Positions 19 to 57,253 of a DNA stretch of 64,000 nt are shown piece after piece. This stretch comes from an uncultured delta proteobacterium (GTDB taxonomy: Bacteria; Desulfobacterota; Binatia; Binatales; Binataceae), in the NCBI GenBank assembly GCA_963765675.1, contig CAVXXK010000001.1, forward strand, positions 1,632,001-1,696,000. Direction: 5' to 3'. The notes below the pieces were generated by a model, which saw nothing but the letters and a program-made list of their open reading frames with translations, ran no database searches and was not told the DNA's origin. Every line of letters starts with the position of its first letter. The stretch's first letter is position 1. Made by a program: the position numbers and the translations under genes.

Positions 19-1707
19 ATGGCCGCGAACCTGCTTTTCTTTGGCGATAACCTCAAAGTTCTGCGCGAAAATATCGCTACCGAATCGGTTGATCTGGTTT
101 ACTTGGATCCGCCGTTTAACTCTGAGCGCGATTACAACGTGCTGTTTAAAGAGCATGGCACGGAATCCGAAGCGCAGATCCGCGCCTTCGAGGACTATTG
201 GCACTGGGATCTCCAGGCGGAGCGCACCTATCGCGAGTTGACCGCTGTAGATGCCGAGAACAACGGCGTCCCGGGGCGCTTAGTGTCCCTTACGGAATCG
301 CTGCGCGCATTCCTCGGCACCAGCGACATGATGGCCTACCTTGTGATGATGGCGATTCGGCTCGCCGAGCTGCGCCGCGTGCTGAAGCCGACAGGCTCCA
401 TTTACCTGCACTGCGACCCAACCGCAAGCCACTACATAAAACTGACCTTGGACGGGATTTTCGGTCCAGAGAATTTTCTTAACGAAATCGTTTGGCAGCG
501 GACAGCATCCAAAGGGCTTACGAAGCGACGCTTGGCGAGCAACCACGACACGGTTTTTGCCTATCGGCGATCTGACCAGGCCATTTGGAATGAGAGTTCA
601 ACGTTTGAACCCTATATCGAATCTCAACTCGATCCGAAAACCGCGTCCAAGTACGCGCAGCAGGATTCTGATGGCCGGCGCTATCAGCTCACAAGTCTGA
701 TCAATCCCAACCCCAATCGCCCCAACCTCACGTACGAGTTTCTTGGAGTCACACGTGTTTGGCGCTGGACAAGGGAAAGGATGAACGCGGCGTACCAAGC
801 CGGCGAGATTGTTCAGTCAAAGCCCGACTCAATTCCGCGTTTCAAGCGGTATCTCGACGAGCAACGCGGACATCCTTTAGGAGACGTATGGGGTGACATT
901 CGCCCACTGAATTCTCAAGCGGCGGAGCGGTTAGGGTATCCCACTCAGAAGCCAGTTGAACTGCTCGAGAGAATCATTTCCCTATCTTCGAATGAAGCAG
1001 ACGTAGTCCTCGATCCATTCTGCGGATGCGGCACTGCTTTGCACGCCGCCGAGCGATTGAAACGGCGCTGGATCGGTATCGACATTACGCATCTCGCGAT
1101 CGGCCTCATCCGCAATCGGCTCGATACTGCTTTCCCGGGTATCAAGTACGAAGTACACGGGGTACCAGCCGACGCGGAGGGCGCCCGATCGTTGGCCGAG
1201 TCCGATCCCTACGATTTCCAATGGTGGGCGCTCCCGCTCATTGGCGCGCGACCTGTGGCCAACAGCGACCCCGGCGCTACGCGCGGAAAGAAGGGGATGG
1301 ACCGTGGAATCGATGGCGTAATCCGGTTCATCGACGACCCTGCATCAGGCCGCAGCAATCGAATCGTCGTTTCCGTGAAGGCCGGAAGGCATCTGAATCC
1401 TGCGATGGTTCGCGATCTGCGTGGAACCATCGAACGTGAGAAAGTTCCGATCGGCGTGCTGCTCTCGATGTATGAGCCGACATCTGAGATGCGTTCGGAA
1501 GCGGCGAAGGCGGGCTTCTGGCATTCCGATTCCTGGGGACGTGACTATCCGCGTGTCCAGCTTCTGACGATCGAAGAAGTATTTGGCGGAAAGAGAGTCG
1601 AATATCCGGGGCGCGATGTGACGCTACAAGCCGCGCCCGCGGAAGCTGCCATGCGCGAGAATCTGCCACTTCCTGGCGTGAAGCCAGCATCGCGGACGAA
1701 GCGTTGA
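19..1707 (+). CDS. N6/N4 DNA methyltransferase (beta class) fused to C-terminal Mrr-like PD-(D/E)xK domain
   Basis: Motif IV DLVYLDPPF precedes motif I VLDPFCGCGT; YPTQKP motif; C-terminal DRGIDG...IVVSVKAG. Confidence 0.88.
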   Translation: MAANLLFFGDNLKVLRENIATESVDLVYLDPPFNSERDYNVLFKEHGTESEAQIRAFEDYWHWDLQAERTYRELTAVDAENNGVPGRLVSLTESLRAFLGTSDMMAYLVMMAIRLAELRRVLKPTGSIYLHCDPTASHYIKLTLDGIFGPENFLNEIVWQRTASKGLTKRRLASNHDTVFAYRRSDQAIWNESSTFEPYIESQLDPKTASKYAQQDSDGRRYQLTSLINPNPNRPNLTYEFLGVTRVWRWTRERMNAAYQAGEIVQSKPDSIPRFKRYLDEQRGHPLGDVWGDIRPLNSQAAERLGYPTQKPVELLERIISLSSNEADVVLDPFCGCGTALHAAERLKRRWIGIDITHLAIGLIRNRLDTAFPGIKYEVHGVPADAEGARSLAESDPYDFQWWALPLIGARPVANSDPGATRGKKGMDRGIDGVIRFIDDPASGRSNRIVVSVKAGRHLNPAMVRDLRGTIEREKVPIGVLLSMYEPTSEMRSEAAKAGFWHSDSWGRDYPRVQLLTIEEVFGGKRVEYPGRDVTLQAAPAEAAMRENLPLPGVKPASRTKR

Positions 1708-21217: not shown

Positions 21218-21631
21218 TCAGCGACGGCGGAAAGTTGCGGCGCGAAGGTCGGTCTGTGTGAAGTCTTCGCCCTGGAACAAGATTGAAGTGTGGTTGTTTT
21301 TCGCTACCGCATAGGCAAAGCAGTCACCAAGGTTGAGTTGGGCAGGATGCCCGCGCCCTTTGCCGTAACGCGCGAACGCGTCAAGCGCCGCCTCGGACTC
21401 TTTCGCACCAATCGGAATCAGCTCGACCCGTGTCAACTCGAGAAAATCGCGAACTGCCTCTGTCGCTTCTTTGACGCTAATCTGCCGCTTGCGGCAGATG
21501 CCGAGCACTGCCTCGAATATCGCGATCGGCGATGTTATCGGCGCCCGCGCCGCGGCAAGCAGATCTGCCAGTGCGCCGGCATCATGCTCGCTTGTCAGAA
21601 TGGCGACGATCGCCGACGCATCGACGAACAT
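21218..21631 (-). CDS. vapC: VapC PIN-domain toxin
   Basis: MFVDASAIVAIL, GKGRGHPAQLNLGDCFAY, DF. Confidence 0.92.
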   Translation of the reverse strand: MFVDASAIVAILTSEHDAGALADLLAAARAPITSPIAIFEAVLGICRKRQISVKEATEAVRDFLELTRVELIPIGAKESEAALDAFARYGKGRGHPAQLNLGDCFAYAVAKNNHTSILFQGEDFTQTDLRAATFRRR

Positions 21632-21870
21632 TATTCGTCCTCGCTGAGCTCGTCGTAGAAATGTTTGTCCGCCTGCAGCCCGGTCGGCGGATGGGCCAGC
21701 ACGCGGGCCTGCAGCTCGCGGAGCTGCTCCCGCAGCGAGGGCGCCTTATTGAGGCGGCGCAACTCGTTCTCTAAGGCCAGCTTCACCGCTTCGGTTTTGT
21801 TGATGCGTTTACGCGCGGCCAATCGTCTGGCGAGTTGGTTGACGGTTTCATTTCGGATATTCAGGGGCAT
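21631..21870 (-). CDS. vapB: VapB antitoxin
   Basis: MPLNIRNE...LA...KTEAVKLAL; TAATG stop/start overlap with vapC. Confidence 0.88.
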   Translation of the reverse strand: MPLNIRNETVNQLARRLAARKRINKTEAVKLALENELRRLNKAPSLREQLRELQARVLAHPPTGLQADKHFYDELSEDE

Positions 21871-21889
21871 TTTGGATCTCCGAGGTATC

Positions 21890-21911
21890 GTAAAGACAAT
21901 AGCGTCTACAC
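21890..21911. promoter_or_regulatory. putative vapBC autoregulatory operator
   Basis: Imperfect palindrome GTAAAGAC-N6-GTCTACAC 20 nt upstream of vapB. Confidence 0.4.
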
Positions 21912-21993
21912 ACGAACGCCGCAACTTTATCTTTATCAATCGCGCGGTGCCCACTTGCGCGGGTGGCGCGGGCGTATGAAATTCGATGTTTCT

Positions 21994-22989
21994 ATGACGA
22001 CCGTGTTGATAATCGGAGGGCAGGGTGCGCTTGGATCGATCGTAGCCGAAGCGATGCGCGCGCAGGGCGATCTGACGGTGCTGATCGGCGGGCGGCGGGC
22101 GGAGCGGCGCGAGGATTTCCGCTACCTCGATCTGGCGCGGCCCGAAACGATTGCACCGGCGCTTGCGGGCGTTGACTTCGCGATCAGCACGGTCGCCGAT
22201 CCGCAGTTCGAGCTGGAACGGGTCGCGGTGGAGACTGGCGCGCGTTCGATGAACATCTCGAGCGCGGTCCTGCCGATCGGCGGACACGTCTCGCTGCGCG
22301 GGCGAGGACTCGCGATCGTGCACGCGGGGCTGGCGCCGCTTGGGCTGCAGGCGCTCATCGCCAAGGCGATGATTGCGCGCCGTCCTGAGGCGGCGCGGCT
22401 GGAAGTCGCGATGTGCTTTTCCGCGCGCGGCGCGAGCGGTCCGCAGGGCCGCGAGTTCGCATACCAGACGCTGGTGCGGCGTCCGTTCGAGCCGTCGCGC
22501 GAGATTGAATTCAGCGCGCCGATCGGGCGGCGGCGATGCTTTTCCGCGGCGATACCCGAGCGCGATATCCTGCACGCGCTGATACCCGAGGGCGACGCGG
22601 GTGTCTTTGTCGGATTCGCCGAGCGAACGATTCATCTCGCGGTCAGCGTGATGCGATCGAGCGGGATGATTCGGATGATTCCGCGCGCGATGTTTGTCGG
22701 ACGCGCCGCCGCGTCCGCGCCCGCCGTCGCGACCACCGAGCCGATGCGCCAGTGGGTGGCCATCTATGACGCGAGCGGCAGGCGGCTCGGTGCGACGGTC
22801 ACGGAAGGCGACGGCGACTATCGCACGACCGCGATGGTCACGCGCGCGTTTCTTGACGCGCTGATCGAACGCCTCAAAACGCGCAAGCCGTTCGGAGTGC
22901 ATAGCGCGGAAAAGCTCTTCGATTTGGCGGACGTGACCCCGCACCTTCCACCCGAGGTGCGCATCTGCGAGCTCGTGGCTACGCCTTGA
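21994..22989 (+). CDS. saccharopine dehydrogenase-like NAD(P)-binding protein
   Basis: VLIIGGQGALG Rossmann motif; GGR; AGLAP. Confidence 0.7.
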   Translation: MTTVLIIGGQGALGSIVAEAMRAQGDLTVLIGGRRAERREDFRYLDLARPETIAPALAGVDFAISTVADPQFELERVAVETGARSMNISSAVLPIGGHVSLRGRGLAIVHAGLAPLGLQALIAKAMIARRPEAARLEVAMCFSARGASGPQGREFAYQTLVRRPFEPSREIEFSAPIGRRRCFSAAIPERDILHALIPEGDAGVFVGFAERTIHLAVSVMRSSGMIRMIPRAMFVGRAAASAPAVATTEPMRQWVAIYDASGRRLGATVTEGDGDYRTTAMVTRAFLDALIERLKTRKPFGVHSAEKLFDLADVTPHLPPEVRICELVATP

Positions 22990-27781: not shown

Positions 27782-29071
27782 CTACTCGGTGACGGTTTCC
27801 ATCACCCGCCCGCTGCCAGTATCGATGATCTGGACCTCGACCGGTCCGCTGACTTTGTAATCTTTTTTCGCGGTATCGATTCCGGACTTGAGGTCGGTCA
27901 TGAACTTCTGCTTGGCGAACGGCGGCATCTGGTCCATCGGAAAATTATCCATCAGGAGCTTGGCTTTGGTATTCGACGACCACTGAATCGAACCCACCTT
28001 CGGTCCCGCGACCGGAAGCCCGCGCACTATCTGCTCGAAGTCGCCCTGAAAAGTCTTGGCGGATTGCGCCGCCGCCTGCGCCGCCGACGACGCCTGCGAT
28101 CCGGCGGTATTCGCGTCGGAAGCTCCGGACGCAACCGGCCCTACGCCGCCGCCCGCGATCTTCGCCATCAGATCTTTCACCTGGCTCTTGGCGTTGTCGT
28201 CGGGCGCGAGGCTGTATGCCTTGGTCAGCGCCGCCTGCGCGTCACCCTGCTTATTCTGCTGCGCGAACGCTACGCCCATATTGTAGTAGGCCTGAAACAT
28301 GTCGGGTTTGATTTTGATCGCGCGCTGATATTGCACCAGCGCCTGGTCAGGATTGCCGGTGTAAAGGTACATTGTGCCGAGATCGGTGCGCACTTCCGGA
28401 TCGTCGGGCTTCTTCTTGAGGAAATGCTCGTATGCGGCGATCGCCTCGTCGTACTTGTTGGTGTCGTAGTCGATATCGCCGATTCCGCGCAGCGCCTGGA
28501 GATTGTCCGGGTCGAGCTTCAGCACGTGACCGTACGCGTCGACGGCCTTCGAGTAATAGGTGTCATCGAACATCGCGGCGCGCATCGAAACGTTGCCCAG
28601 CTCGATCCACGCGGCAGGGTCCTTGGGTTTAGCCTTAGCGTCCTTTTCGAGCTTGTCGATAAAGCTGCGCGCCTCGGTGGGAAGCTGCACGCGTGGATGT
28701 CCTGCCGGGAGCTGATTGGGCGCGTTGTTACCGGCGGTGCCGCCGAGCGAGTTGCTCGCGCTGCCGCTGGGAAGCTGGCCTGCACTGTCGGTTTGCGCGA
28801 TCGGAGCCGACGCGACCTGTTGCTTTACGGCCGCCGGGGTGTGCCACATGATCCACGCGGCGGCGCCGAGTCCGATCACGGTTATCGCGATAAACACCGC
28901 TACGAACGTGACCGTGAGCGGCATCGCCTCTTTCGCTACGGGCATCGCCGATGGCTTGGCGGCCTCTTCGGAGCCGGCTGGCGACGCCGCCGCGCCGAGC
29001 GCGCGGCCGCATTCGACGCAGAACTTCGCGCCCGCCATCAACGGGGCGCCGCAATGCGGACAAAATCTCAT
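27782..29071 (-). CDS. zinc-ribbon/TM/TPR protein
   Basis: FCPHCG..AKFCVECG, one TM helix, LPAGHP, several TPRs. Confidence 0.85.
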   Translation of the reverse strand: MRFCPHCGAPLMAGAKFCVECGRALGAAASPAGSEEAAKPSAMPVAKEAMPLTVTFVAVFIAITVIGLGAAAWIMWHTPAAVKQQVASAPIAQTDSAGQLPSGSASNSLGGTAGNNAPNQLPAGHPRVQLPTEARSFIDKLEKDAKAKPKDPAAWIELGNVSMRAAMFDDTYYSKAVDAYGHVLKLDPDNLQALRGIGDIDYDTNKYDEAIAAYEHFLKKKPDDPEVRTDLGTMYLYTGNPDQALVQYQRAIKIKPDMFQAYYNMGVAFAQQNKQGDAQAALTKAYSLAPDDNAKSQVKDLMAKIAGGGVGPVASGASDANTAGSQASSAAQAAAQSAKTFQGDFEQIVRGLPVAGPKVGSIQWSSNTKAKLLMDNFPMDQMPPFAKQKFMTDLKSGIDTAKKDYKVSGPVEVQIIDTGSGRVMETVTE

Positions 29072-29183
29072 CGTCAAATTCCTACCTGACGCGATCAGGT
29101 ATTAGCAATACGGCTTGGCGCGCCGGGTTTATGCTCGGCGGCGCGATCGGGTATAGTTCGCCCGAAGGCAAGGAGAAACGCGA

Positions 29184-36981: not shown

Positions 36982-37809
36982 CTAGTTGATCAGCGCGACC
37001 TGGCGCACCAGGCGCAGCACCGACTCGCGTGCATTTTCCGCTCCGGGATGCTCCGGCGCGATCGACAGGAAGCTCTGGAAATCGTCGAGCGCGGCCTGAA
37101 AGCATTCGAGCCGCTCGAACAGGTTGCCCCGTTCAGCCAGCTCTTCGACCGAGCGCGGGTCGAGCAGCAGAATACGATCGAGCGCGGACAGCGCACGGTT
37201 CCAGTCCGACGCCGCGAGATAGATTATTTTGAGATTGCGCAAAATCCGCGCGAGAGTTGCGCGCGCGCCGATTGGCTTGAGCATCGCCGGGTGCAACTCG
37301 ACCGGTTGGCCGAAGTTTTCCGCCAGGCGCGCGCGAATATCCTCGAGCGTCAGGATCGCGCCGTCATAGAATGGATCAATCACCAGCTCTCCGCGCTCAT
37401 CGACCGCCTTGACCAGGAAATGGGTGGGAAACGAGATGCCGTATAGGTTCAGTCCGAGGCGCCGTCCGACTTCCAGGTAAATCACCGAGAGCGTGATCGG
37501 AATTCCCTTGCGGCGTTCGAGCACTTCGTTCAGAAACGAATTGCGCGGATCGCTGTATTCGTCCCGATTTCCGTGAAAGCCCTTCTGTTCGAAAAGAAAA
37601 TGCGACAGAAGCTGGATCCGCTCGACCGTGTCGCTGCCCGCGTGCACGATCGGTTCGGCCTCGCGCGCAAGCTCGGTGATCAGGTTGAGATAGTGGTCCA
37701 CATCGAGCGCAGGATATTCTTCCTTGGCGATCAGCAGCGCGCCGCGCGCCAGCGGGACCGGCTCGCGCGAAGCGATCGTGATAAATTCGCGGCGCGCGTC
37801 ATCGTTCAT
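36982..37809 (-). CDS. SirB1 family transglutaminase-like/TPR protein
   Basis: PRNSFLNEVLERRKGIPITL, FPTHF, IDPF. Confidence 0.88.
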   Translation of the reverse strand: MNDDARREFITIASREPVPLARGALLIAKEEYPALDVDHYLNLITELAREAEPIVHAGSDTVERIQLLSHFLFEQKGFHGNRDEYSDPRNSFLNEVLERRKGIPITLSVIYLEVGRRLGLNLYGISFPTHFLVKAVDERGELVIDPFYDGAILTLEDIRARLAENFGQPVELHPAMLKPIGARATLARILRNLKIIYLAASDWNRALSALDRILLLDPRSVEELAERGNLFERLECFQAALDDFQSFLSIAPEHPGAENARESVLRLVRQVALIN

Positions 37810-46770: not shown

Positions 46771-47637
46771 ATGGGAATTGAGCTCAAGAAATTCGACAAC
46801 CGTTCCAAGGCCGACGGACCCGAGGTAAAGCATCTCGACCCGTCCAATGCGCCTTACTACCTGCCGATCGGCGACGAAGTACAAATCTTCACTGCCGCTT
46901 ACAGCGCCCGGCTGCCCGTCCTGCTGAAGGGACCGACCGGATGCGGCAAAACCCGCTTTGTCGAGCACATGGCGCATCAGCTCGCCGCGCTCGAGAACGG
47001 ACCCAACGAACTTATCACGGTGGCCTGCCACGAAGATCTGACCGGTTCGGACCTGGTCGGACGCTACCTGATCCAGGCTGACGAAACCGTGTGGGTCGAT
47101 GGCCCGCTGACCCAGGCCGTCCGTCGCGGAGCGATCTGCTACCTCGACGAGGTGGTTGAGGCGCGCAAGGACACCACCGTGCTAATCCATCCGCTGTCGG
47201 ACCACCGGCGAATTCTGCCGATCGAGAAGCGCGGCGAGACGATCGAGGCGCACGACGGCTTCCTGCTGGTGATCTCGTACAATCCGGGCTACCAGAGTAT
47301 TCAGAAGAATCTGAAGCATTCGACGCGCCAGCGCTTTGTGACGATCGAGTTCGATTATCCGCCTGCCGTGAAGGAAGTGGATATTATCGCGCACGAGGCG
47401 GGGCTCGACCGCGAGATGGCGATGCAGCTTGCGGTGCTCGGGGAGAAGGTGCGCAACCTGAAAGCGTCGGGACTCGAGGAAGGTGTTTCGACCCGGCTCC
47501 TGATTTATGCTGGTGAGCTGATTCGGCAGGGCATCGCGCCGCGCCGTGCCGCAACCGTCGCGGTCACCTGGTCGTTGACCGATGAAGCCGACAGCAAGCG
47601 CGCGATCGACGAAGTCGTAAAAGCAATTTTTCCGTAG
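46771..47637 (+). CDS. CbbQ/NirQ/NorQ-family AAA+ ATPase
   Basis: [53 protein letters not shown]. Confidence 0.93.
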
Positions 47638-47704: not shown

Positions 47705-48742
47705 ATGGCAAAACTTCTTCGACCGATGGAAACCCTGGTGGCCGCCGCCGCGATCGCGGCGATTTTCGGATCGGCCGCGCCTGTGTGCGCGCAGGTTCCG
47801 ACCGCAAGCCTGCAAACCGGTCCGCGGCTCGATTTTCCGGCCGGTCTGGCCACCGACAACCGCACCGTCTATGTCGCGAACTCGCGCAACAACACGGTCG
47901 TCGCGGTTGACGTGGTCTCGCACAGCATCACGAACCTCGCGGGGACCAATTTTCAGGACGGCAGCAACGACGGCGTAGGCCCGACCGCGCGCTTCAACAG
48001 CCCCGACGGGATGGCGCTGGTGAATCGCGACCTCTACGTCCTCGACACCAACAATTCCGATTTGCGCAAGATCAATCTCGATACCCACGCCGTTACCACC
48101 GCGGCCGGTACCGCGAATATCTCCGGCACCGATGACGGCCACGCCACCGCGGCGCATTTCAACCTGCCCACCCAAATCGCCACCGACGGACAGAACCTGT
48201 ACATCTCCGACAGCGGCAACAACCTTGTCCGCCGCCTGTCGCTGGCCGACGGGATGGTCAAGACGATAGGCGGACAGCCCCAAGTGGCCGGGAAAGTGGA
48301 TGGACCCGCGACCAAGTCGGAATTCAACGGACCGAGCGGAATCGCCACCGACGGCAAATTCGTCTACGTCGCCGACACAGGCAACGATGCGATCCGGAAA
48401 ATCGATCTCTCGACCATGACTACCTCAACGATCGCGGGCACCGGCGAAGAGGGCAGCAAAGACGGTCCTGGCCCGCAGGCGCAGTTCAATAATCCGGGCG
48501 CATTGTGCCTTAACGGAACCACACTGTATGTGATGGACGGCGACAATCACGCGATCCGCAAAATCGACACCGGCACCTTTAACGTGACCACGCTCACCCA
48601 GGTCAACGGACATATCGGCTCGGGATGCGCCGTCACCAGCGACGGCAAGACGCTGTATTACTCCGACACCACTGAGAACGCGGTGCAGGCGACCGATACT
48701 TCCAATGGCAACTTCGTGCCGCTGTATCCGTTAACCCAATGA
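47705..48742 (+). CDS. exported NHL-repeat beta-propeller protein
   Basis: Signal peptide; repeated FNxPxGIATDG..YVAD.GN..IRKID. Confidence 0.88.
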   Translation: MAKLLRPMETLVAAAAIAAIFGSAAPVCAQVPTASLQTGPRLDFPAGLATDNRTVYVANSRNNTVVAVDVVSHSITNLAGTNFQDGSNDGVGPTARFNSPDGMALVNRDLYVLDTNNSDLRKINLDTHAVTTAAGTANISGTDDGHATAAHFNLPTQIATDGQNLYISDSGNNLVRRLSLADGMVKTIGGQPQVAGKVDGPATKSEFNGPSGIATDGKFVYVADTGNDAIRKIDLSTMTTSTIAGTGEEGSKDGPGPQAQFNNPGALCLNGTTLYVMDGDNHAIRKIDTGTFNVTTLTQVNGHIGSGCAVTSDGKTLYYSDTTENAVQATDTSNGNFVPLYPLTQ

Positions 48743-51119: not shown

Positions 51120-52559
51120 ATGAGCAATCGGGATCTCTCGCGCCAGATTTTCCGCCGCAAGCCGGCCGCGATGCTGATGGCCGAGGCGGATAGCGGAAGC
51201 ACCGGGCTCAAGCGCGTGCTGGGTGCGTTGGACCTTACGATGCTCGGGATCGGCGCGATTGTCGGCGCCGGAATTTTCGTGCTGACCGGCGTCGCGGCGG
51301 CAAAATACGCCGGACCCGCGGTCACGCTTTCATTCGTGGTGTCGGGATTCGCGTGCGCGATGGCGGCGCTGTGTTACGCCGAGTTCGCCGCGATGATCCC
51401 GATTGCGGGGAGCGCGTACTCGTACTCCTACGCCACGATGGGCGAGCTGGTCGCATGGATCATCGGATGGGATCTCGTGCTCGAGTACGCGGTCGGCGCC
51501 GCCGCCGTGGCAGTCGGATGGTCCGGCTACCTGCAGGTGATTCTGAAAGGCTTCGGGCTCAGCCTGCCGAGCGCGATCGCGCACGCACACGGAGCCGGTC
51601 CCGGCGGCGTGATCGACCTGCCGGCGTTGCTCATCGTGCTGGTGATTAGCGCGGTGTTGTACGTCGGAATCTCCGAGAGCGCGCGGCTCAACTCGTTGAT
51701 CGTCGCGATCAAGCTGGCCGCGATCGCGCTTGTGATTGTCGTCGGCGCATTTTATATCCGCCCCGCCAACTGGTCGCCGTTCGCGCCGATGGGATGGACC
51801 GGCGTGATGAAGGGCGCCGCGGTTATTTTCTTCGCCTATATCGGATTCGACGCGGTCTCGACCGCGGCCGAGGAGGTGATCGATCCGAATCGCGACCTGC
51901 CGATCGGAATCCTTGCGTCGCTGTTCGTCTGCACCGCGCTCTATATCCTGGTGGCCGGCGTGCTGACCGGGATGGTCCCGGCGCACACGATCGACTTGAA
52001 CGCGCCGCTCGCGTCCGCTTTCGTGCATCGCGGGCTGAACGCGGCTTCGGGAGTCATTTCGCTCGGCGCGGTAGCGGGTCTGACTTCCGTGCTGCTGGTG
52101 CTGCTGCTCGGCCAGTCGCGGGTGTTCTTCGCGGTCTCGCGCGACGGATTGCTCCCACCGGCCTTCAGCCGGATTCATCCGCGCTTCCGGACTCCGTATA
52201 TCCCGACAACGCTGACCGGAATCGCGGTTGGAATCACGGCCGCGCTGCTGCCAATTCAGGAAATCGCGGAGCTGACCAATATCGGCACGCTGTTCGCCTT
52301 CGTGCTGGTATGCCTGGGGCTGATGATTCTGCGCTGGATCGCGCCGCAGATGCACCGGCCATTTCGCACTCCGTTGGTGCCGGTCGTGCCGAGCCTCGGC
52401 GTGATCTTCTGCCTGTACCTGATGCTCAGTCTTCCGGTGGTGACCTGGATCCGGTTCTTTGTCTGGATGGCGATCGGGTTCGGAATTTATTTTGGCTACG
52501 GACGTTTCCATAGCCGCGTCGCCGCGGCCGCCGACAGGGCCTCGGCCGCCGCCGACTGA
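51120..52559 (+). CDS. amino acid permease (APC/CAT family)
   Basis: GIGAIVGAGIF, AGSAYSY, FFAYIGFDAV. Confidence 0.92.
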   Translation: MSNRDLSRQIFRRKPAAMLMAEADSGSTGLKRVLGALDLTMLGIGAIVGAGIFVLTGVAAAKYAGPAVTLSFVVSGFACAMAALCYAEFAAMIPIAGSAYSYSYATMGELVAWIIGWDLVLEYAVGAAAVAVGWSGYLQVILKGFGLSLPSAIAHAHGAGPGGVIDLPALLIVLVISAVLYVGISESARLNSLIVAIKLAAIALVIVVGAFYIRPANWSPFAPMGWTGVMKGAAVIFFAYIGFDAVSTAAEEVIDPNRDLPIGILASLFVCTALYILVAGVLTGMVPAHTIDLNAPLASAFVHRGLNAASGVISLGAVAGLTSVLLVLLLGQSRVFFAVSRDGLLPPAFSRIHPRFRTPYIPTTLTGIAVGITAALLPIQEIAELTNIGTLFAFVLVCLGLMILRWIAPQMHRPFRTPLVPVVPSLGVIFCLYLMLSLPVVTWIRFFVWMAIGFGIYFGYGRFHSRVAAAADRASAAAD

Positions 52560-52583
52560 CGCCGTCTCTCGCGCTAACTTCCG

Positions 52584-53162
52584 CTACTGGTTGGCGGCCT
52601 TTTGTGCGGCCGCGGCGGCTGCTGCCGCTGCGGCGTGAGCTGCCGCGGCTTTCTGCTGCGCCTGGGCGCGCGCGTCGCCGCGCGCGATATTGCCCGTCAT
52701 CTTTCTGCCGGCGGCCGCGCCGAGCGCCTGCTGCTCCCATTTGGGCTTGGCCATCTCGACCCATCTGCCGTTCACCAGAGCATAGGAAAAGACCAGGTAC
52801 TTGAGCGTTCCGGTCGCCGCGCCCTTCGAGCTGCCGGGCTTGGTCGGATCGTATTCGACGCCGCCGAGCTTGACGCTGCACGTGAGCTGATGATGGGGAC
52901 CATAGGAGGGCAGGTACTCGAACTTCGGCTGAAGATCGATGTAGGTCTTCTTCTCGTTCCTGCGCTGGTCCTGCTCGTCGAGGTACGGACCCGCTTCGTC
53001 CGAGACCTTGTCGGTCAGCGTACGCTGCAAGGCCGGTGTCAGATCCTGTTGGACGCGATGATGCGGCAGCGCTTGCGCATGCAGGGGCTGAAGATTGGCG
53101 GGTGAAAACAGCAGCGCGGCCGCTATCAGAGCGGCCGCGCTGGTTATGTATCGCATTTTCAT
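52584..53162 (-). CDS. hypothetical exported protein with Ala-rich tail
   Basis: Signal peptide; last gene of the exbBD-vWA run. Confidence 0.7.
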   Translation of the reverse strand: MKMRYITSAAALIAAALLFSPANLQPLHAQALPHHRVQQDLTPALQRTLTDKVSDEAGPYLDEQDQRRNEKKTYIDLQPKFEYLPSYGPHHQLTCSVKLGGVEYDPTKPGSSKGAATGTLKYLVFSYALVNGRWVEMAKPKWEQQALGAAAGRKMTGNIARGDARAQAQQKAAAAHAAAAAAAAAAQKAANQ

Positions 53163-53212
53163 AGCGGTCTAATCCTTACCAGATTAGACGGCCGCGAGCA
53201 CGTCCGGATTTG

Positions 53213-54442
53213 CTATTCCGAACCGCTGCCGCCTCCGGAATTAATTCCCCTCCCGAAAGCGGAGACCTGGTTCTGCCATTGCTCGCCAAAGGCCAGGATC
53301 AATACCTGCTGGTTGATATGCGAGTCGTGCGTCAGCGAACGCATCGCACCGCCTCCCGCGTTGGCCAGCACCTTGAAGGCCGCCTGGGTCTGCTTGGCGA
53401 ACTGCGGCAGCGCCGAGATCTTCGGCGGCTCCTCGCGATGCACCTTCAGCCAGAACTCGCGCTCGAAGCGCTCGTGCTCTTCGGCGGTAACGTCCACCGT
53501 GTTGAAGGTGCCGTTCTCACTCTTGAACTGCCGGATCAGCGAGAGCAGCGGTGCGAAGTCGTCTTTTGCCGGCGGCGAATCGCCGACCAGCACGATCACC
53601 TTCTTCGCGTATGGCTTCCAGTCCATCTTGCCGATCGCCGTCTGGCAGGCGCCGAGGGTGTCTTCTTCCCATTCGCCGCCACCCTTGGCGGTGATGTTGT
53701 TCAGAAAATCGGTCAGCTTCTGCGGTGATAGCGTCAGCGGCTGGATCTCCATCTTCTCACCCTTGCCGCCGAACACGATGATGCCGACGCGCGCGATCGG
53801 GACCAGCCGATGGATCGCCTGGATAAGCTGCGCCATCTTGGCTTTCACGTCGTTGATGATCAGACCCATCGATCCGGTGCCGTCGATCACCAGCACCACG
53901 TCCAGACCCTTGCGGCGCAACTCTCCGATGAATCCGCCGAAGCCCGATCCGATACCGTGACCGTAGCCCGAACCCATACCGCCGCCACGGCCGATTCCGA
54001 TTCCGCCGCCGCCTGCGGCGCGGACGTAATCGTTGGCGAGTCCGACAGCCTGCGAAGTATCGACAGCCTGCGGAGTGTCCATCTGCTGCGGTGCGGTGTC
54101 AGGCATCGGCACTTCAGGCATGTCGAGATCCTGCATCTCGTTGCCGCCTCCACCGCCGCCGCCTGCTTCGAGATTAACCATGATCAGTTCGCGTCCGCGC
54201 TGTTCGTGAACGGTTATGATCAGAAACAGCAATACCAGGACGTGAATCGCGACCGAGAGCGGGAATGGGCCGATCAACAGCCGCAACCCGTCGCGAATTT
54301 TTTGCAGCCGGCTAACGTCGGCGGTGTCTTCGTCGCCCCGTACTTCGGCTGCGGCCTCTCTCTTCGAGGTCAGCCGATACAGCACGAATGCCGTAACGAA
54401 CATCGAAATCAACAGAAGTATAATTAGTATTGGCCAGAACAT
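53213..54442 (-). CDS. membrane-anchored vWA protein with TonB/TolA-like SxxxH helix
   Basis: Two TM helices, second contains LSVAIH; Pro- and Gly-rich linker; MIDAS-like VLVIDGTGSM, GGGEWEE, VLVGDSPP. Confidence 0.85.
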   Translation of the reverse strand: MFWPILIILLLISMFVTAFVLYRLTSKREAAAEVRGDEDTADVSRLQKIRDGLRLLIGPFPLSVAIHVLVLLFLIITVHEQRGRELIMVNLEAGGGGGGGNEMQDLDMPEVPMPDTAPQQMDTPQAVDTSQAVGLANDYVRAAGGGGIGIGRGGGMGSGYGHGIGSGFGGFIGELRRKGLDVVLVIDGTGSMGLIINDVKAKMAQLIQAIHRLVPIARVGIIVFGGKGEKMEIQPLTLSPQKLTDFLNNITAKGGGEWEEDTLGACQTAIGKMDWKPYAKKVIVLVGDSPPAKDDFAPLLSLIRQFKSENGTFNTVDVTAEEHERFEREFWLKVHREEPPKISALPQFAKQTQAAFKVLANAGGGAMRSLTHDSHINQQVLILAFGEQWQNQVSAFGRGINSGGGSGSE

Positions 54443-54462
54443 TTGATGAAGTGCTCCCGCTG

Positions 54463-54936
54463 CTACGCTCCGCCACCCGGCGCTGCGCCCGAACCGCCGC
54501 CCGGTGGCAGCGATGAGACGGCGATCGCGATTGCCTCGGCGCCCGCGGTCTTGGCGATGTCCAGAATCCGGACCATGTCGCCCAAAATGACCTTGGGGTC
54601 GCCTTGGAAAATCACGATTTTGTCCGAGGATTGCAGCGGTGCGAGCTGCTGCTGCAGCGTCGTCATCAGCTGCGCCTCCGTTACCTGCTGCGAGCCGACC
54701 ATGATCTGGTGGTCCGCGGTGTAGGTGACGATGACTCCCTTGGGCTTGTCGGTGGGTGCCGCTGCTTCCGCCTTGGGCAGGTCCACGTGCGCGGCAGATT
54801 CAATTGTGACTGCGGTGGTCACCATGAAGATGATCAGCAGTACCAGAAAGATGTCAGTCAACGGCGTGATGTTGATATCCGAGAATACGCCGCCGCTGCC
54901 ATGTCCAGCTTTCTTTTTCTTCTGCTTCCTTGTCAT
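54463..54936 (-). CDS. exbD: ExbD/TolR family protein
   Basis: DINITPLTDIFLVLLIIFMV, GD..V..G..V.ILD..K.AG. Confidence 0.92.
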   Translation of the reverse strand: MTRKQKKKKAGHGSGGVFSDINITPLTDIFLVLLIIFMVTTAVTIESAAHVDLPKAEAAAPTDKPKGVIVTYTADHQIMVGSQQVTEAQLMTTLQQQLAPLQSSDKIVIFQGDPKVILGDMVRILDIAKTAGAEAIAIAVSSLPPGGGSGAAPGGGA

Positions 54937-54989
54937 TGGCGAATCCTCTCGAGAACGGATGCGTCCGCGTGTGCGTTACGCTCCGCCGC

Positions 54990-55436
54990 TCAGCCTCCCG
55001 ATGCTCCCTGGTTGGCGAGCTGTGCGCCGGTGACGCGCTTGGCCGCTATTGCGATCTGGCCAGCGCCGGCGGCTTTGGCGATATTCAGGATTCGCACCAT
55101 GTCGCCCAGGAGCACTTTGCGGTCGCCCTGGAAGACAACGACTTTTGCATCAACCTTGCTCAGCGCTTCGCGCAAGCTGGGCAGCAGTTCCCGTTCCGGA
55201 ACGTCCTTCGAGTTCACGAACAACTCATGCTGCGCCGTATAGGTGACTATCACGCCCTTGTTTTCAGGGCTGGTGTTGGTCGCGTTGGGCAAATCCACAT
55301 GCGCGGCCGACTCGATAGTGACCGACGTGGTCACCATAAAGATGATCAGCAGCACCAAAAAGATATCGGTGAGCGGGGTGATGTTAATGTCGGCGAAGAC
55401 CCCGCCGCCTTCACCCTTTGGACCACTAACGGCCAC
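54990..55436 (-). CDS. exbD: ExbD/TolR family protein
   Basis: DINITPLTDIFLVLLIIFMV; GTG start overlapping exbB. Confidence 0.92.
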   Translation of the reverse strand: MAVSGPKGEGGGVFADINITPLTDIFLVLLIIFMVTTSVTIESAAHVDLPNATNTSPENKGVIVTYTAQHELFVNSKDVPERELLPSLREALSKVDAKVVVFQGDRKVLLGDMVRILNIAKAAGAGQIAIAAKRVTGAQLANQGASGG

Positions 55437-56067
55437 CAGCTTGCCTCCCCTGCAGCGCCGCGTCCATCAGGCGGTCGGCGTTGATGTGCAGGATCGCATT
55501 GATGTTTTCGATCTTCACCGAGAAGTAGTTGTAGAAAATAACCGCGATGATCGCGACGGCGAGTCCGAGTGCGGTCGAAATCAACGCTTCGGAAATACCG
55601 GCCGCGACGACCGAGAATCCGCCGGTGCCCATAATTGCCATCGACTGGAAGGCGACCAGGATGCCGACGACGGTCCCGAACAGTCCGATAAACGGTGCCG
55701 ATGCGCCTGCGGTCGCGAGCACCCAGACATAGCGCTTGAGCTCAAGGCCCTCTTGATAGCGCCGCTCGTCGTCGAGGTCTTCAAGATGTTCGCGATCCAT
55801 GGTTTGCGCCGCCGAGATGAGCGTATGGAAGACGCGGTCCGAAGCGGTGGCGCGAGCCTGAGTCGCCTGCAGTGCCTGGTTGAAGTTACCCTGGCGGAGC
55901 TGAGGGATCAGCGCGTCGGCCGATTTAGCGGTCTTCGACATGATTCCGCGCAGCGCCCACAGGCGCTCGAAAATGATCGCCAGGCAGACCACCGATATGA
56001 ACAGCAGGGGATACGTTGCGTAGTAGCCCTGTTGAATCATCCCCAAAATGCTGAACTGATTAGACAT
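55426..56067 (-). CDS. exbB: MotA/TolQ/ExbB proton channel
   Basis: APFIGLFGTVVGI, GISEALISTALGL. Confidence 0.92.
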   Translation of the reverse strand: MSNQFSILGMIQQGYYATYPLLFISVVCLAIIFERLWALRGIMSKTAKSADALIPQLRQGNFNQALQATQARATASDRVFHTLISAAQTMDREHLEDLDDERRYQEGLELKRYVWVLATAGASAPFIGLFGTVVGILVAFQSMAIMGTGGFSVVAAGISEALISTALGLAVAIIAVIFYNYFSVKIENINAILHINADRLMDAALQGRQAGGR

Positions 56068-56220
56068 CGCCTATCCTCACTAATGTGGTTTAGATTTTGA
56101 GCGGCGCAATTCTCAGGTCCCGCTCGAACCGTTCTCTAGCCCCAAACTTATCCTCGCGGTTCTCCCCTGAACCGGCCGCACTATACCTGCGCCATCCCGG
56201 GATTTCATATCCCGGCAGAC

Positions 56221-56241
56221 AAAAAAATCCGGCGTGCCGGA
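56221..56241 (-). terminator. terminator-like hairpin upstream of exbB
   Basis: Minus strand TCCGG-CACG-CCGGA followed by T7. Confidence 0.55.
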
Positions 56242-56537
56242 GACGACGCGGAAGCCTTTAATGGAACAAAGGGCTGTTTTTGTCAAGAGGGACTAACGCT
56301 GCGGAGACAAAACATCCACTTGGCGGGCGCTTCGCGCCGCACTCCTGGGCCGCTTCGATTGCAAACGGCCTGACTCTCAAAGCATAGAGCGCGCCCATGC
56401 TTAGCGCAATCCAGAGAATTTCGCTTTCGCAAGATACGCCGACAGGCGTCCGGTCGGGACCTGAGCAGGCGCTGTCGGCGCCGAGCCGGTGATGCCTTCG
56501 TCTTGACTTCTTGGTCTCTCAAGTCTATCCAAGTTTT

Positions 56538-56559
56538 GACCGCCGAGCGGTCTTTTTTT
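56538..56559 (+). terminator. terminator-like hairpin upstream of lipoprotein gene
   Basis: GACCGC-CGA-GCGGTC followed by T7. Confidence 0.55.
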
Positions 56560-56629
56560 CTGATCGCGTCTCCTCTTGGGTATCCTTTTGGGAGTTTTCT
56601 GGAGATTTCTTTTAAAGACTACTATCCTG

Positions 56630-57253
56630 ATGTCTAATTCGACGAAGTTGGTGCGTTACTTGTTCAATCGATACTCGGCAGTCCGCCCGATTCAGTCCGG
56701 GCCACGCGCGATCTCAATCGCGGTGCTGTCCGCGATTTTTCTGCTCGCCGCCGCCGGATGCAACAAGCCCGCGCCGCAGGCGCCCGTCGCCGTCAAGAAA
56801 GTCGCCCTCGGGCCCGACGAGCCCTACAAGACGCTGCCGCCTGATATGTTCACCGGGATGCCGATTTATCCGAACTCCACGATTGAGCATGTCCGCCGCC
56901 CAAAGGGATCAATGCGCGAGGTGGTGTTTTCCACCGACGCTGCGATGCCGGCGCTGGTTGCTTACTTCAAGGAAGGGCTCAAGCAGGGCAATTTCCACAT
57001 CACTTCGTCGCTCATTATGCCGGCGCGGCGCACCTGGTCGTGCGACTTCCACAAAGAGGGCCGCCCGGGCAGCATCATGCTCTACCCGAGCGACGCCGAT
57101 AAGTCGAAAATGACGATCGATTTGATCTATGAGCTGCCCTCGAAAGTTGACGAGGCGATGCTCGAGCCGGTCGAGAAGTTTGATGTGGTAGGGCCCGGAG
57201 AGGTTGCCCAACAGGCGGTCCCTAATCCTAGAGAGAACACGAAGCAGAACTAG
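56630..57253 (+). CDS. putative lipoprotein
   Basis: Lipobox-like LAAAG-C; GMPIYPNS; start uncertain. Confidence 0.7.
   Translation: MSNSTKLVRYLFNRYSAVRPIQSGPRAISIAVLSAIFLLAAAGCNKPAPQAPVAVKKVALGPDEPYKTLPPDMFTGMPIYPNSTIEHVRRPKGSMREVVFSTDAAMPALVAYFKEGLKQGNFHITSSLIMPARRTWSCDFHKEGRPGSIMLYPSDADKSKMTIDLIYELPSKVDEAMLEPVEKFDVVGPGEVAQQAVPNPRENTKQN

Follow-up and report, generated by a model that had tools for sequence, protein, structure and literature searches.

Gene content of the locus

Five open reading frames (ORFs) on the minus strand, at positions 52584-56067 of a 64,000-nucleotide (nt) stretch of DNA from an uncultured Binataceae delta proteobacterium (GCA_963765675.1, contig CAVXXK010000001.1, 1,632,001-1,696,000; hereafter the window), encode an ExbB/TolQ-like protein, two ExbD proteins, a 409-amino-acid (aa) membrane protein with a von Willebrand A (vWA) domain and a 192-aa exported protein. 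We analyze here this run of genes and the force-transducing system that it may encode. The ExbB/TolQ-like proton-channel subunit (55426-56067, 213 aa) matches PF01618 MotA_ExbB with an E-value of 7.4e-29, and the ExbD/TolR-like subunits 1 (54990-55436, 148 aa) and 2 (54463-54936, 157 aa) match PF02472 ExbD with E-values of 6.6e-23 and 1.2e-23. The vWA protein (53213-54442), a putative TonB/TolA-like transducer, is recognized by VWA_2 (E 4.5e-10), VWA_4 and VWA over residues 181-319. The exported protein (52584-53162) falls into no Pfam or NCBIfam family, and its gene is probably the last one in the operon. There is an 11-nt overlap between exbB and exbD1, and the subsequent intergenic gaps, calculated from the ORF coordinates, measure 53, 20 and 50 nt, a spacing compatible with a single operon. 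A putative sigma-70-type promoter lies 5' of exbB on the same strand (56180-56208); it is a weak site with 9 of 12 consensus matches, and 3 promoter-like sites were seen in the region compared with 1.0 ± 1.0 in shuffled sequences.

The original prediction, made from the DNA letters, had described the same order of genes and the absence of a TonB_C protein, a TonB-dependent receptor and tolB/pal nearby, and both observations hold. Pfam scans of 68 window ORFs (8 at E ≤ 0.01 and 60 more at E ≤ 1e-5) returned no match to the TonB_C, TonB-dependent receptor, TolB, Pal or OmpA families. When the operon proteins were compared with the window by tblastn, neither a further motor gene nor another vWA gene was detected. 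A tblastn against plasmids had no match, and Rfam gave no match within 52000-57000. The TPR proteins nearest to the operon are encoded at 27782-29077 and 36982-37809; its upstream neighbor is instead a divergently oriented gene for a putative lipoprotein (56576-57253, plus strand) with the lipobox-like sequence LAAAGC. This protein has no Pfam family, and its Atlas lead is the START-like domain AF_1845 (score 0.91). A defence system was ruled out as a reading of the locus, as PADLOC reported only a marginal ZorA match to the ExbB-like protein (E 0.0026) and left the remaining five proteins without a match.

Motor subunits

The ExbB-like protein displays three hydrophobic helices in hydropathy analysis and presumably forms a pentamer. 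Its nearest solved chains are ExbB (5sv0, 3.6e-16) and TolQ (9avi, 1.8e-15). Against NCBIfam, the motor proteins rank TolQ/TolR best and ExbB/ExbD next: the channel subunit scores 113 bits with TIGR02796 TolQ (cut-off 221) and 84 bits with TIGR02797 ExbB (cut-off 206), while the two ExbD proteins score 78 and 77 bits with TolR (cut-off 127) and likewise stay under the ExbD equivalog cut-off. Since all of these scores are far under the equivalog cut-offs, the ExbB-like and ExbD-like proteins belong to neither canonical system.

ExbD subunit 1 carries a conserved Asp within its single helix (TPLTDIFLVLLIIF). The two paralogues share 66% identity (BLASTP) and their Asp-bearing trans-membrane segments are almost identical; over 54778-54936 and 55290-55436 (minus strand) they have almost the same N-terminal and trans-membrane sequence (INITPLTDIFLVLLIIFMVTT). 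At the DNA level, the helix region common to both genes contains many synonymous differences, which rules out recent gene conversion between them and indicates that both helices are under purifying selection, as one would expect of two helices that share one ExbB pore. ExbD1 and ExbD2 probably form a heterodimer.

Anatomy of the vWA protein

The vWA protein begins with an extra hydrophobic helix (residues 3-21, 54380-54436; hydropathy) that has no charge ahead of it, followed by a loop (residues 23-54) holding 8 Lys or Arg residues; the N-terminus of this helix would lie outside and its C-terminus inside. The TonB-like helix comes next (residues 55-78, 54209-54280, with a hydropathy span of 60-78) and contains SVAIH at residues 63-67, with S63 encoded at 54254-54256 and H67 at 54242-54244. 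The original prediction had placed SVAIH in a single trans-membrane helix; the motif does sit in a hydrophobic helix, but this is the second of two. Neither helix contains an Asp. The segment ELIMVNLE (residues 85-92, 54167-54190), which alternates hydrophobic positions, follows the helix and is a candidate "motor box" for the periplasmic domain of ExbD. It is near-identical in 20 of 20 paralogues of the type described below, and comparable alternating segments are seen within columns 101-170 of an alignment of relatives (A1, see below). The predicted Pro-rich and Gly-rich linker and the DGTGS motif can be read directly in the translation: the linker, disordered according to an AlphaFold2 (AF2) model and its sequence, spans residues 93-167 (53942-54166), is first acidic and Pro-rich, then Gly-rich, and includes GGGGIGIGRGGG. 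The vWA domain (residues 168-405, 53228-53941) carries DGTGS at residues 187-191 (53870-53884), corresponding to a putative metal ion-dependent adhesion site (MIDAS) with D187, T189 and S191.

The AF2 model, built on 39 sequences, has a mean pLDDT (predicted local distance difference test) score of 80. Most of the vWA domain exceeds 90, residues 86-107 and 144-164 fall below 50, and the stretch between these two scores 54-59. Foldseek searches of the PDB with the vWA domain return BatB (3ibs), integrin I domains, TFIIH p44/Ssl1 and Rpn10 at E ~1e-8 and a target template modelling (TM) score of ~0.7, as well as a Bacteroides aerotolerance vWA protein (4jdu). A phmmer search of the PDB with the whole protein found low-complexity Gly matches only.

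The Ser-x3-His helix and the location of the vWA domain

An exhaustive search of 1.84 billion representatives identified 2,684 relatives of the vWA protein at E ≤ 1e-3, 629 at ≤ 1e-10 and 81 at ≤ 1e-30. The best matches are named Candidatus Binataceae, and the few relatives with a named source in the profile search come from Deltaproteobacteria, Binatia, Kryptonia, Margulisiibacteriota and Terriglobales metagenome-assembled genomes. We compared a close set of 120 relatives with a distant set, made up of those 84 listed representatives of a 50%-identity library that are 330 aa or longer. S-x3-H, proposed in the prediction as the mark of a TonB/TolA-type helix, is present in the hydrophobic helix of 120/120 close relatives and of 70/84 distant full-length ones. 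Alignment A1, with 39 rows at 25-57% identity, shows S63, H67, D187, E260 and a few Gly and Pro positions to be invariant; its rows were picked for carrying S-x3-H, so that 70/84 is the unbiased figure for the Ser/His pair. In the MIDAS-like motif, D187 is invariant in A1 and T189 and S191 are kept in at least 90% of the rows; E260, which follows GGG, is also invariant, and the Asp of LVGD is variable. By its conservation, the Ser-x3-His helix is not a chance feature of this protein.

In the 70 distant relatives that have the pair, the median distance of the Ser from the start of the uncharged span is 7 residues, which places it near the cytoplasmic end. Ser16 and His20 of Escherichia coli TonB are likewise near the cytoplasmic end of their helix. 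Similar S-x3-H helices appear in the TonB and TolA sequences in the supplement of Williams-Jones et al. (2025, Mol Biol Evol, PMC12204202; here and below, statements refer to the accessible excerpts of the article and supplement). An additional helix ahead of the Ser/His helix was absent in 64 of the 70 representatives and single in 6; in A1, only the closest relatives have one, which confines this element, as far as the sequences tell, to the Binataceae clade.

Two lines of evidence predict that the vWA domain is periplasmic, the location that the original prediction had assumed. In the window protein, the loop ahead of the Ser/His helix is rich in Lys and Arg. When the 15-residue flanks of the helix are compared in the 70 relatives, the N-terminal flank has the larger number of Lys and Arg in 41 and the smaller in 15, while 14 have equal numbers; the means are 2.9 (N-terminal) and 1.9 (C-terminal). 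The domain architecture of relatives is stronger evidence than this charge bias. Among 26 scanned long relatives (484-732 aa, and two more), 18 have an FHA or YscD-type domain ahead of the Ser/His helix, for example P0199, P0214, P0221, P0231, P0235, P0246, P0249, P0250 and P0254, and the paralogues described below have an H-x3-C-x2-C module at the same place. FHA and zinc-finger anti-sigma modules are cytoplasmic; as both are N-terminal to the helix, the vWA head should lie outside the cytoplasm.

Synteny in related genomes

A scan of genome contigs with a 12-row alignment, keeping the best 80 matches, gave 76 loci, all Binataceae-like. The locus closest to the window, L001, has proteins 97-100% identical to those of the operon. 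For linkage we counted the 63 of 76 loci in which the sequence upstream of the vWA match extends for 2100 nt or more. Of these, 46 have exbB and two exbD genes upstream of the vWA gene, and they include all 46 loci counted as orthologous. When the match reaches the N-terminus of the vWA protein, exbB-exbD-exbD lies upstream in 46/48 loci (L016 and L039 are the exceptions), and in these Binataceae-like loci the predicted linkage of homologues to exbBD is found. Of the 42 motor loci whose downstream flank is long enough, 40 contain the gene for the 192-aa protein there; the divergent lipoprotein gene lies upstream in 42 of 44.

The exported protein

The 192-aa protein starts with a hydrophobic, signal-like segment (hydropathy) that is kept in its alignment. 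It has 344 homologues and all named ones are from Binataceae or Binatus. The predicted structure (pLDDT 82.7) consists of a helix (residues 43-69), four strands (81-146) and a second helix (149-191) with a conserved poly-Ala tail. No PDB fold matched better than E 0.07, with a weak NTF2-like resemblance only, and Atlas matches of at most 0.81 gave no useful lead. The original prediction proposed this protein as a possible ligand of the vWA domain. While the motor and the S-x3-H transducer core of that proposal are supported, the ligand role is not; a complex prediction of vWA residues 165-409 with the mature exported protein (residues 36-192), both supplied as alignments, scored 0.00 against a mark of 0.32 and is uninformative either way about binding.

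Two further features of this gene were observed. The run of about 10 alanines in the predicted C-terminal helix (52584-52680), unusual for an exported protein, is shared by 22 of the 23 homologues in the alignment. Within the signal-peptide codons, 20 nt after the start codon, there is a GC-rich inverted repeat (53112-53142) whose 13-bp arms match perfectly and enclose a loop of 5 nt; it could form a structure that affects translation or be a mere consequence of Ala-rich codons.

Paralogues on anti-sigma-like proteins

A second kind of vWA protein, here called type B, is encoded directly 3' of an extracytoplasmic function (ECF) sigma factor in 20 loci (tblastn detected the sigma factor in 20 of the 76). 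The sigma factor of locus L034 scores 46.8 bits with TIGR02937 (cut-off 42.9) and matches Sigma70_r4. All 20 type-B proteins have H-x3-C-x2-C, the zinc-binding anti-sigma motif, in the N-terminus and continue with the helix GPFPLSVAIH and the segment HEQRGRELIMVNLE. Compared with the window protein, type B is 19% identical in the N-terminus, 74% in the helix and box, 96% in the linker and 90% in the vWA domain. A third paralogue, C, often found 3' of type B in the same locus, shows 20%, 79%, 70% and 59% identity in the same regions. Identity among these paralogues is thus 74-79% in the helix and post-helix segment but as low as 19-20% in the N-terminus.

L034:6769-10325 lies on the same contig as L001, at a distance of ~265 kb, and contains the ECF sigma factor and the anti-sigma-like vWA protein of an arrangement that often includes the third vWA paralogue and has no adjacent motor. 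The same arrangement of ECF sigma and anti-sigma-vWA genes occurs in 19 other loci, e.g. L037, L040, L073 and L076. On six contigs a motor locus is accompanied by a type-B locus (L001/L034, L022/L042, L027/L051, L060/L047, L024/L074 and L064/L076), which indicates that the same head is used in the motor operon and on an anti-sigma factor. Since a paralogue in the same genomes joins an almost identical linker and head to an anti-sigma N-terminus beside an ECF sigma factor, the ligand state of the head is probably also reported to transcription.

Comparison with known systems

A literature search found one description of a vWA/TolQ/two-TolR kind of system, the vWA force transducers of Williams-Jones et al. 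(PMC12204202); a search pairing Binatota with TonB found no treatment of the present system among the papers listed. The published proteins, with Tichowtungia aerotolerans as the reference locus, have an N-terminal helix bearing an SHLS motif and a C-terminal vWA domain; the linker is disordered and includes a segment, near residues 55-60 in the reference proteins, that is named the "motor box" or "stator box". Their gene is directly 3' of one tolQ-like and two different tolR-like genes. AlphaFold3 models in that work dock the helix on the motor by its conserved His (PMC12204202). The Binataceae operon shares the Ser/His helix, the disordered linker, the C-terminal vWA fold and the upstream tolQ-like and two tolR-like genes, a likeness that rests on the described features rather than on direct sequence comparison with the reference transducers. 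It differs in having one transducer gene instead of two, an extra N-terminal helix, a clade-specific exported protein downstream and no TPR gene; the latter is said to be "often" upstream of the motor in the Planctomycetes-Verrucomicrobia-Chlamydiae (PVC) group and is not presented as obligatory (PMC12204202). The taxa listed are Proteobacteria, Planctomycetes, Verrucomicrobia, Bacteroidetes and Rhodothermaeota, and the string "Binat" is absent from the supplement in its accessible form. The same article defines a second family, in which vWA proteins with an Asp-bearing trans-pore helix and no Ser/His replace TolR/ExbD in tolQ-only loci (PMC12204202). There too a membrane-tethered vWA protein sits beside a TolQ-like gene, whereas the Binataceae operon has two ExbD genes and a vWA helix with Ser/His and without Asp.

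With TonB-ExbB-ExbD the operon has in common an ExbB/ExbD-family motor, a Ser-x3-His near the cytoplasmic end of the helix, a long non-globular periplasmic linker and a globular C-terminal head. Unlike that system, it has no TonB_C or nearby TonB-dependent receptor and encodes two ExbD paralogues rather than one; its linker is Gly-rich as well as Pro-rich and its head, of ~240 residues, is a vWA domain that carries a MIDAS-like site. From Tol-Pal it is set apart by motor proteins that score under the TolQ/TolR equivalog cut-offs and by the lack of TolB or Pal in the window. The Agl-Glt machinery has AglR5QS, composed of one TolQ-like and two TolR-like subunits, and GltG, organized as FHA-helix-linker-TonB-like domain (PMC11761067, accessible excerpts). 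Both systems combine one TolQ-like with two TolR-like subunits and use a single-helix transducer with a long disordered periplasmic segment, and distant vWA relatives have the N-terminal FHA domain of the GltG type, with vWA replacing the TonB-like domain. However, GltG and GltJ end in TonB-C-like domains, the vWA protein CglB is a separate surface adhesin there, and the Pfam sweep showed no glt genes in the window. The vWA fold itself is close to BatB, but the MoxR/DUF58 neighbors and the DUF3520 domain of BatA/BatB proteins are missing. Finally, the ECF289 group includes an anti-sigma factor carrying a vWA domain (PMC7826278, accessible excerpts); the Binataceae paralogue resembles it in this respect but retains the TonB-like Ser/His helix.

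A probable proton-driven motor with a vWA-headed transducer

We conclude, with a probability of roughly 0.6, that the operon encodes a 5:2-type proton-driven stator together with its own dedicated vWA-headed force transducer and is a Binataceae member of the vWA force transducer kind. Its components would be the ExbB/TolQ-like channel, two ExbD/TolR-like plug subunits and a TonB/TolA-like protein in which vWA replaces the TonB C-terminal domain. We infer that the second helix of the vWA protein, with S63 and H67, docks outside the ExbB ring as in TonB and TolA. Proton flow through the Asp-bearing ExbD helices would drive the motor, and the force would be passed along the ~90-residue disordered linker to the periplasmic vWA head, which may bind an envelope partner through its MIDAS-like, putatively metal-dependent site. 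The original prediction suggested adhesion, envelope remodelling or protein handling as possible outputs. This motor-transducer core matches the published proposal, so that the operon joins a kind of system that had already been proposed and is so far only computationally defined. New beyond the accessible account (PMC12204202) are the occurrence in Binataceae, the extra helix, the absence of the TPR gene, the clade-specific exported protein, the anti-sigma paralogue and the FHA branch.

Several observations weigh against this conclusion. Among the Binataceae loci, 17/63 hold a vWA paralogue with the same helix and no motor gene upstream. As all 76 loci are Binataceae-like close kin, conserved synteny may reflect simple descent, and for distant relatives and other phyla the motor linkage is taken solely from the published report in its accessible part (PMC12204202). 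The full Ser/His pair is lacking in 14/84 distant relatives, of which 4 have the His only (A-x3-H) and 10 have neither residue, although several of these 10 are truncated or of other architecture. A sequence search with residues 51-100 matched no TonB or TolA chain in the PDB at E ≤ 10, and neither TonB nor TolA has an equivalent of the extra N-terminal helix. The Pfam sweep of the 68 ORFs detected no candidate outer-membrane partner in the window. A canonical MIDAS consists of D-x-S-x-S plus downstream Thr and Asp ligands; the motif here, as known from sequence, is instead DxTxS.

The paralogues without an adjacent motor also speak for a reading in which the two parts of the operon are neighbors and nothing more, with the motor serving a conventional TonB or TolA encoded elsewhere and the vWA protein being an ordinary membrane-anchored one like BatA/BatB. 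TonB is frequently encoded away from exbBD, and the best structural matches include BatB 3ibs and the aerotolerance protein 4jdu. We nevertheless consider such an uncoupled arrangement unlikely. The Ser-x3-His pair is kept down to 25-30% identity and would be unneeded in a passive anchor, conservation between paralogues of unrelated N-terminus is best in the helix and post-helix segment, and the 20-nt gap to exbD2 along with the motor linkage of N-terminally complete loci argues for a shared operon. MoxR or DUF58 neighbors are absent, and the ExbB and ExbD proteins are under the NCBIfam cut-offs for true ExbB/TolQ and ExbD/TolR. The operon might alternatively do no mechanical work and be mainly a signalling device, whose vWA head senses a ligand while the motor or anchor feeds a pathway to the ECF sigma factor of the anti-sigma paralogue. 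The invariable H-x3-C-x2-C N-terminus of type B and its position next to the sigma gene speak for it, as do the near-identical linker and head, the contigs with both locus types and the precedent of a vWA anti-sigma factor in ECF289 (PMC7826278). The window protein is the copy that resides in the motor operon, though, where there is no sigma factor, and it has a short extra helix in place of the anti-sigma module, which makes a mainly signalling role unlikely; signalling and force transduction are, moreover, compatible with each other. A combination of both would be one ExbB-ExbD1-ExbD2 motor that serves several clients with a Ser/His helix and box, including the anti-sigma protein. Pulling on the ligand-bound anti-sigma/vWA paralogue would then release or expose the ECF sigma factor, and the operon copy would work mechanically or compete for ligand. 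We offer this as a speculative and rather doubtful extension.

The composition of the motor, which equals the AglR5QS layout, and the FHA-helix(S-x3-H)-vWA order of the 18 long relatives, reminiscent of GltG (PMC11761067), raise the question of a gliding or adhesion machine of the Agl-Glt type, in which the cell would move over surfaces or attach to them by way of a motor-driven, adhesin-like vWA head or that head's partner. Williams-Jones et al. state the function of vWA force transducers as unknown and themselves suggest gliding (PMC12204202). Such a machine is very unlikely to be encoded here, given that the Pfam sweep found no Glt-like genes or outer-membrane barrels in the window and no TPR scaffold beside the operon, and that the window protein lacks an FHA domain and has a head tethered to the inner membrane rather than surface-exposed like CglB. 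Even less probable is a Tol-Pal-like tether, with the vWA head binding a periplasmic or outer-membrane lipoprotein and thereby stabilizing or constricting the outer membrane. The best NCBIfam scores do go to TolQ, at 113 bits, and to TolR, and a divergent lipoprotein gene is conserved upstream in 42/44 loci; yet all scores are under the TolQ/TolR cut-offs, the conservation of the lipoprotein gene may be due to descent only, and TolB, Pal, CpoB and YbgC were not found in the window by the Pfam sweep. 

Other features of the window

A CbbQ/NorQ-type AAA+ ATPase is encoded at 46771-47637 (plus strand) without an adjacent vWA partner, followed by an exported NHL-repeat protein at 47705-48742 (plus strand). 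ATPases of this type are usually paired with a vWA partner. A link to the operon was set aside, as the ATPase is cytoplasmic and its gene is 5.6 kb from the vWA gene and not adjacent to it; its conservation in 31 loci is explained by descent. At 21218-22944 (minus strand), a PIN-domain protein (21218-21631) is encoded directly 3' of an ORF whose C-terminal 77 residues match an Rv0623-like antitoxin. The two likely form a VapBC-type pair; in its listed form, the upstream ORF probably extends too far. At the window edge, 19-1707 (plus strand) encodes an N6/N4 DNA methylase fused to a NACHT-associated inactive restriction-endonuclease domain.

Implications for a possible force transduction in Binataceae

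Binatota are an abundant uncultured soil lineage, and the Binataceae operon would extend the vWA-transducer kind to them. The combination of one Ser/His helix with no module, an extra helix, an anti-sigma module or an FHA domain suggests that this helix is a general plug-in for 5:2 motors. The regulon of the ECF sigma factor beside the near-identical-head paralogue could reveal what the vWA system responds to, and if the anti-sigma/vWA paralogue is indeed pulled by the motor, it would constitute a force-gated transcription switch. To our knowledge, TonB and TolA were for a long time the sole known means of delivering the proton energy of the inner membrane across the periplasm, and transducers with a vWA head would add a third class of output.

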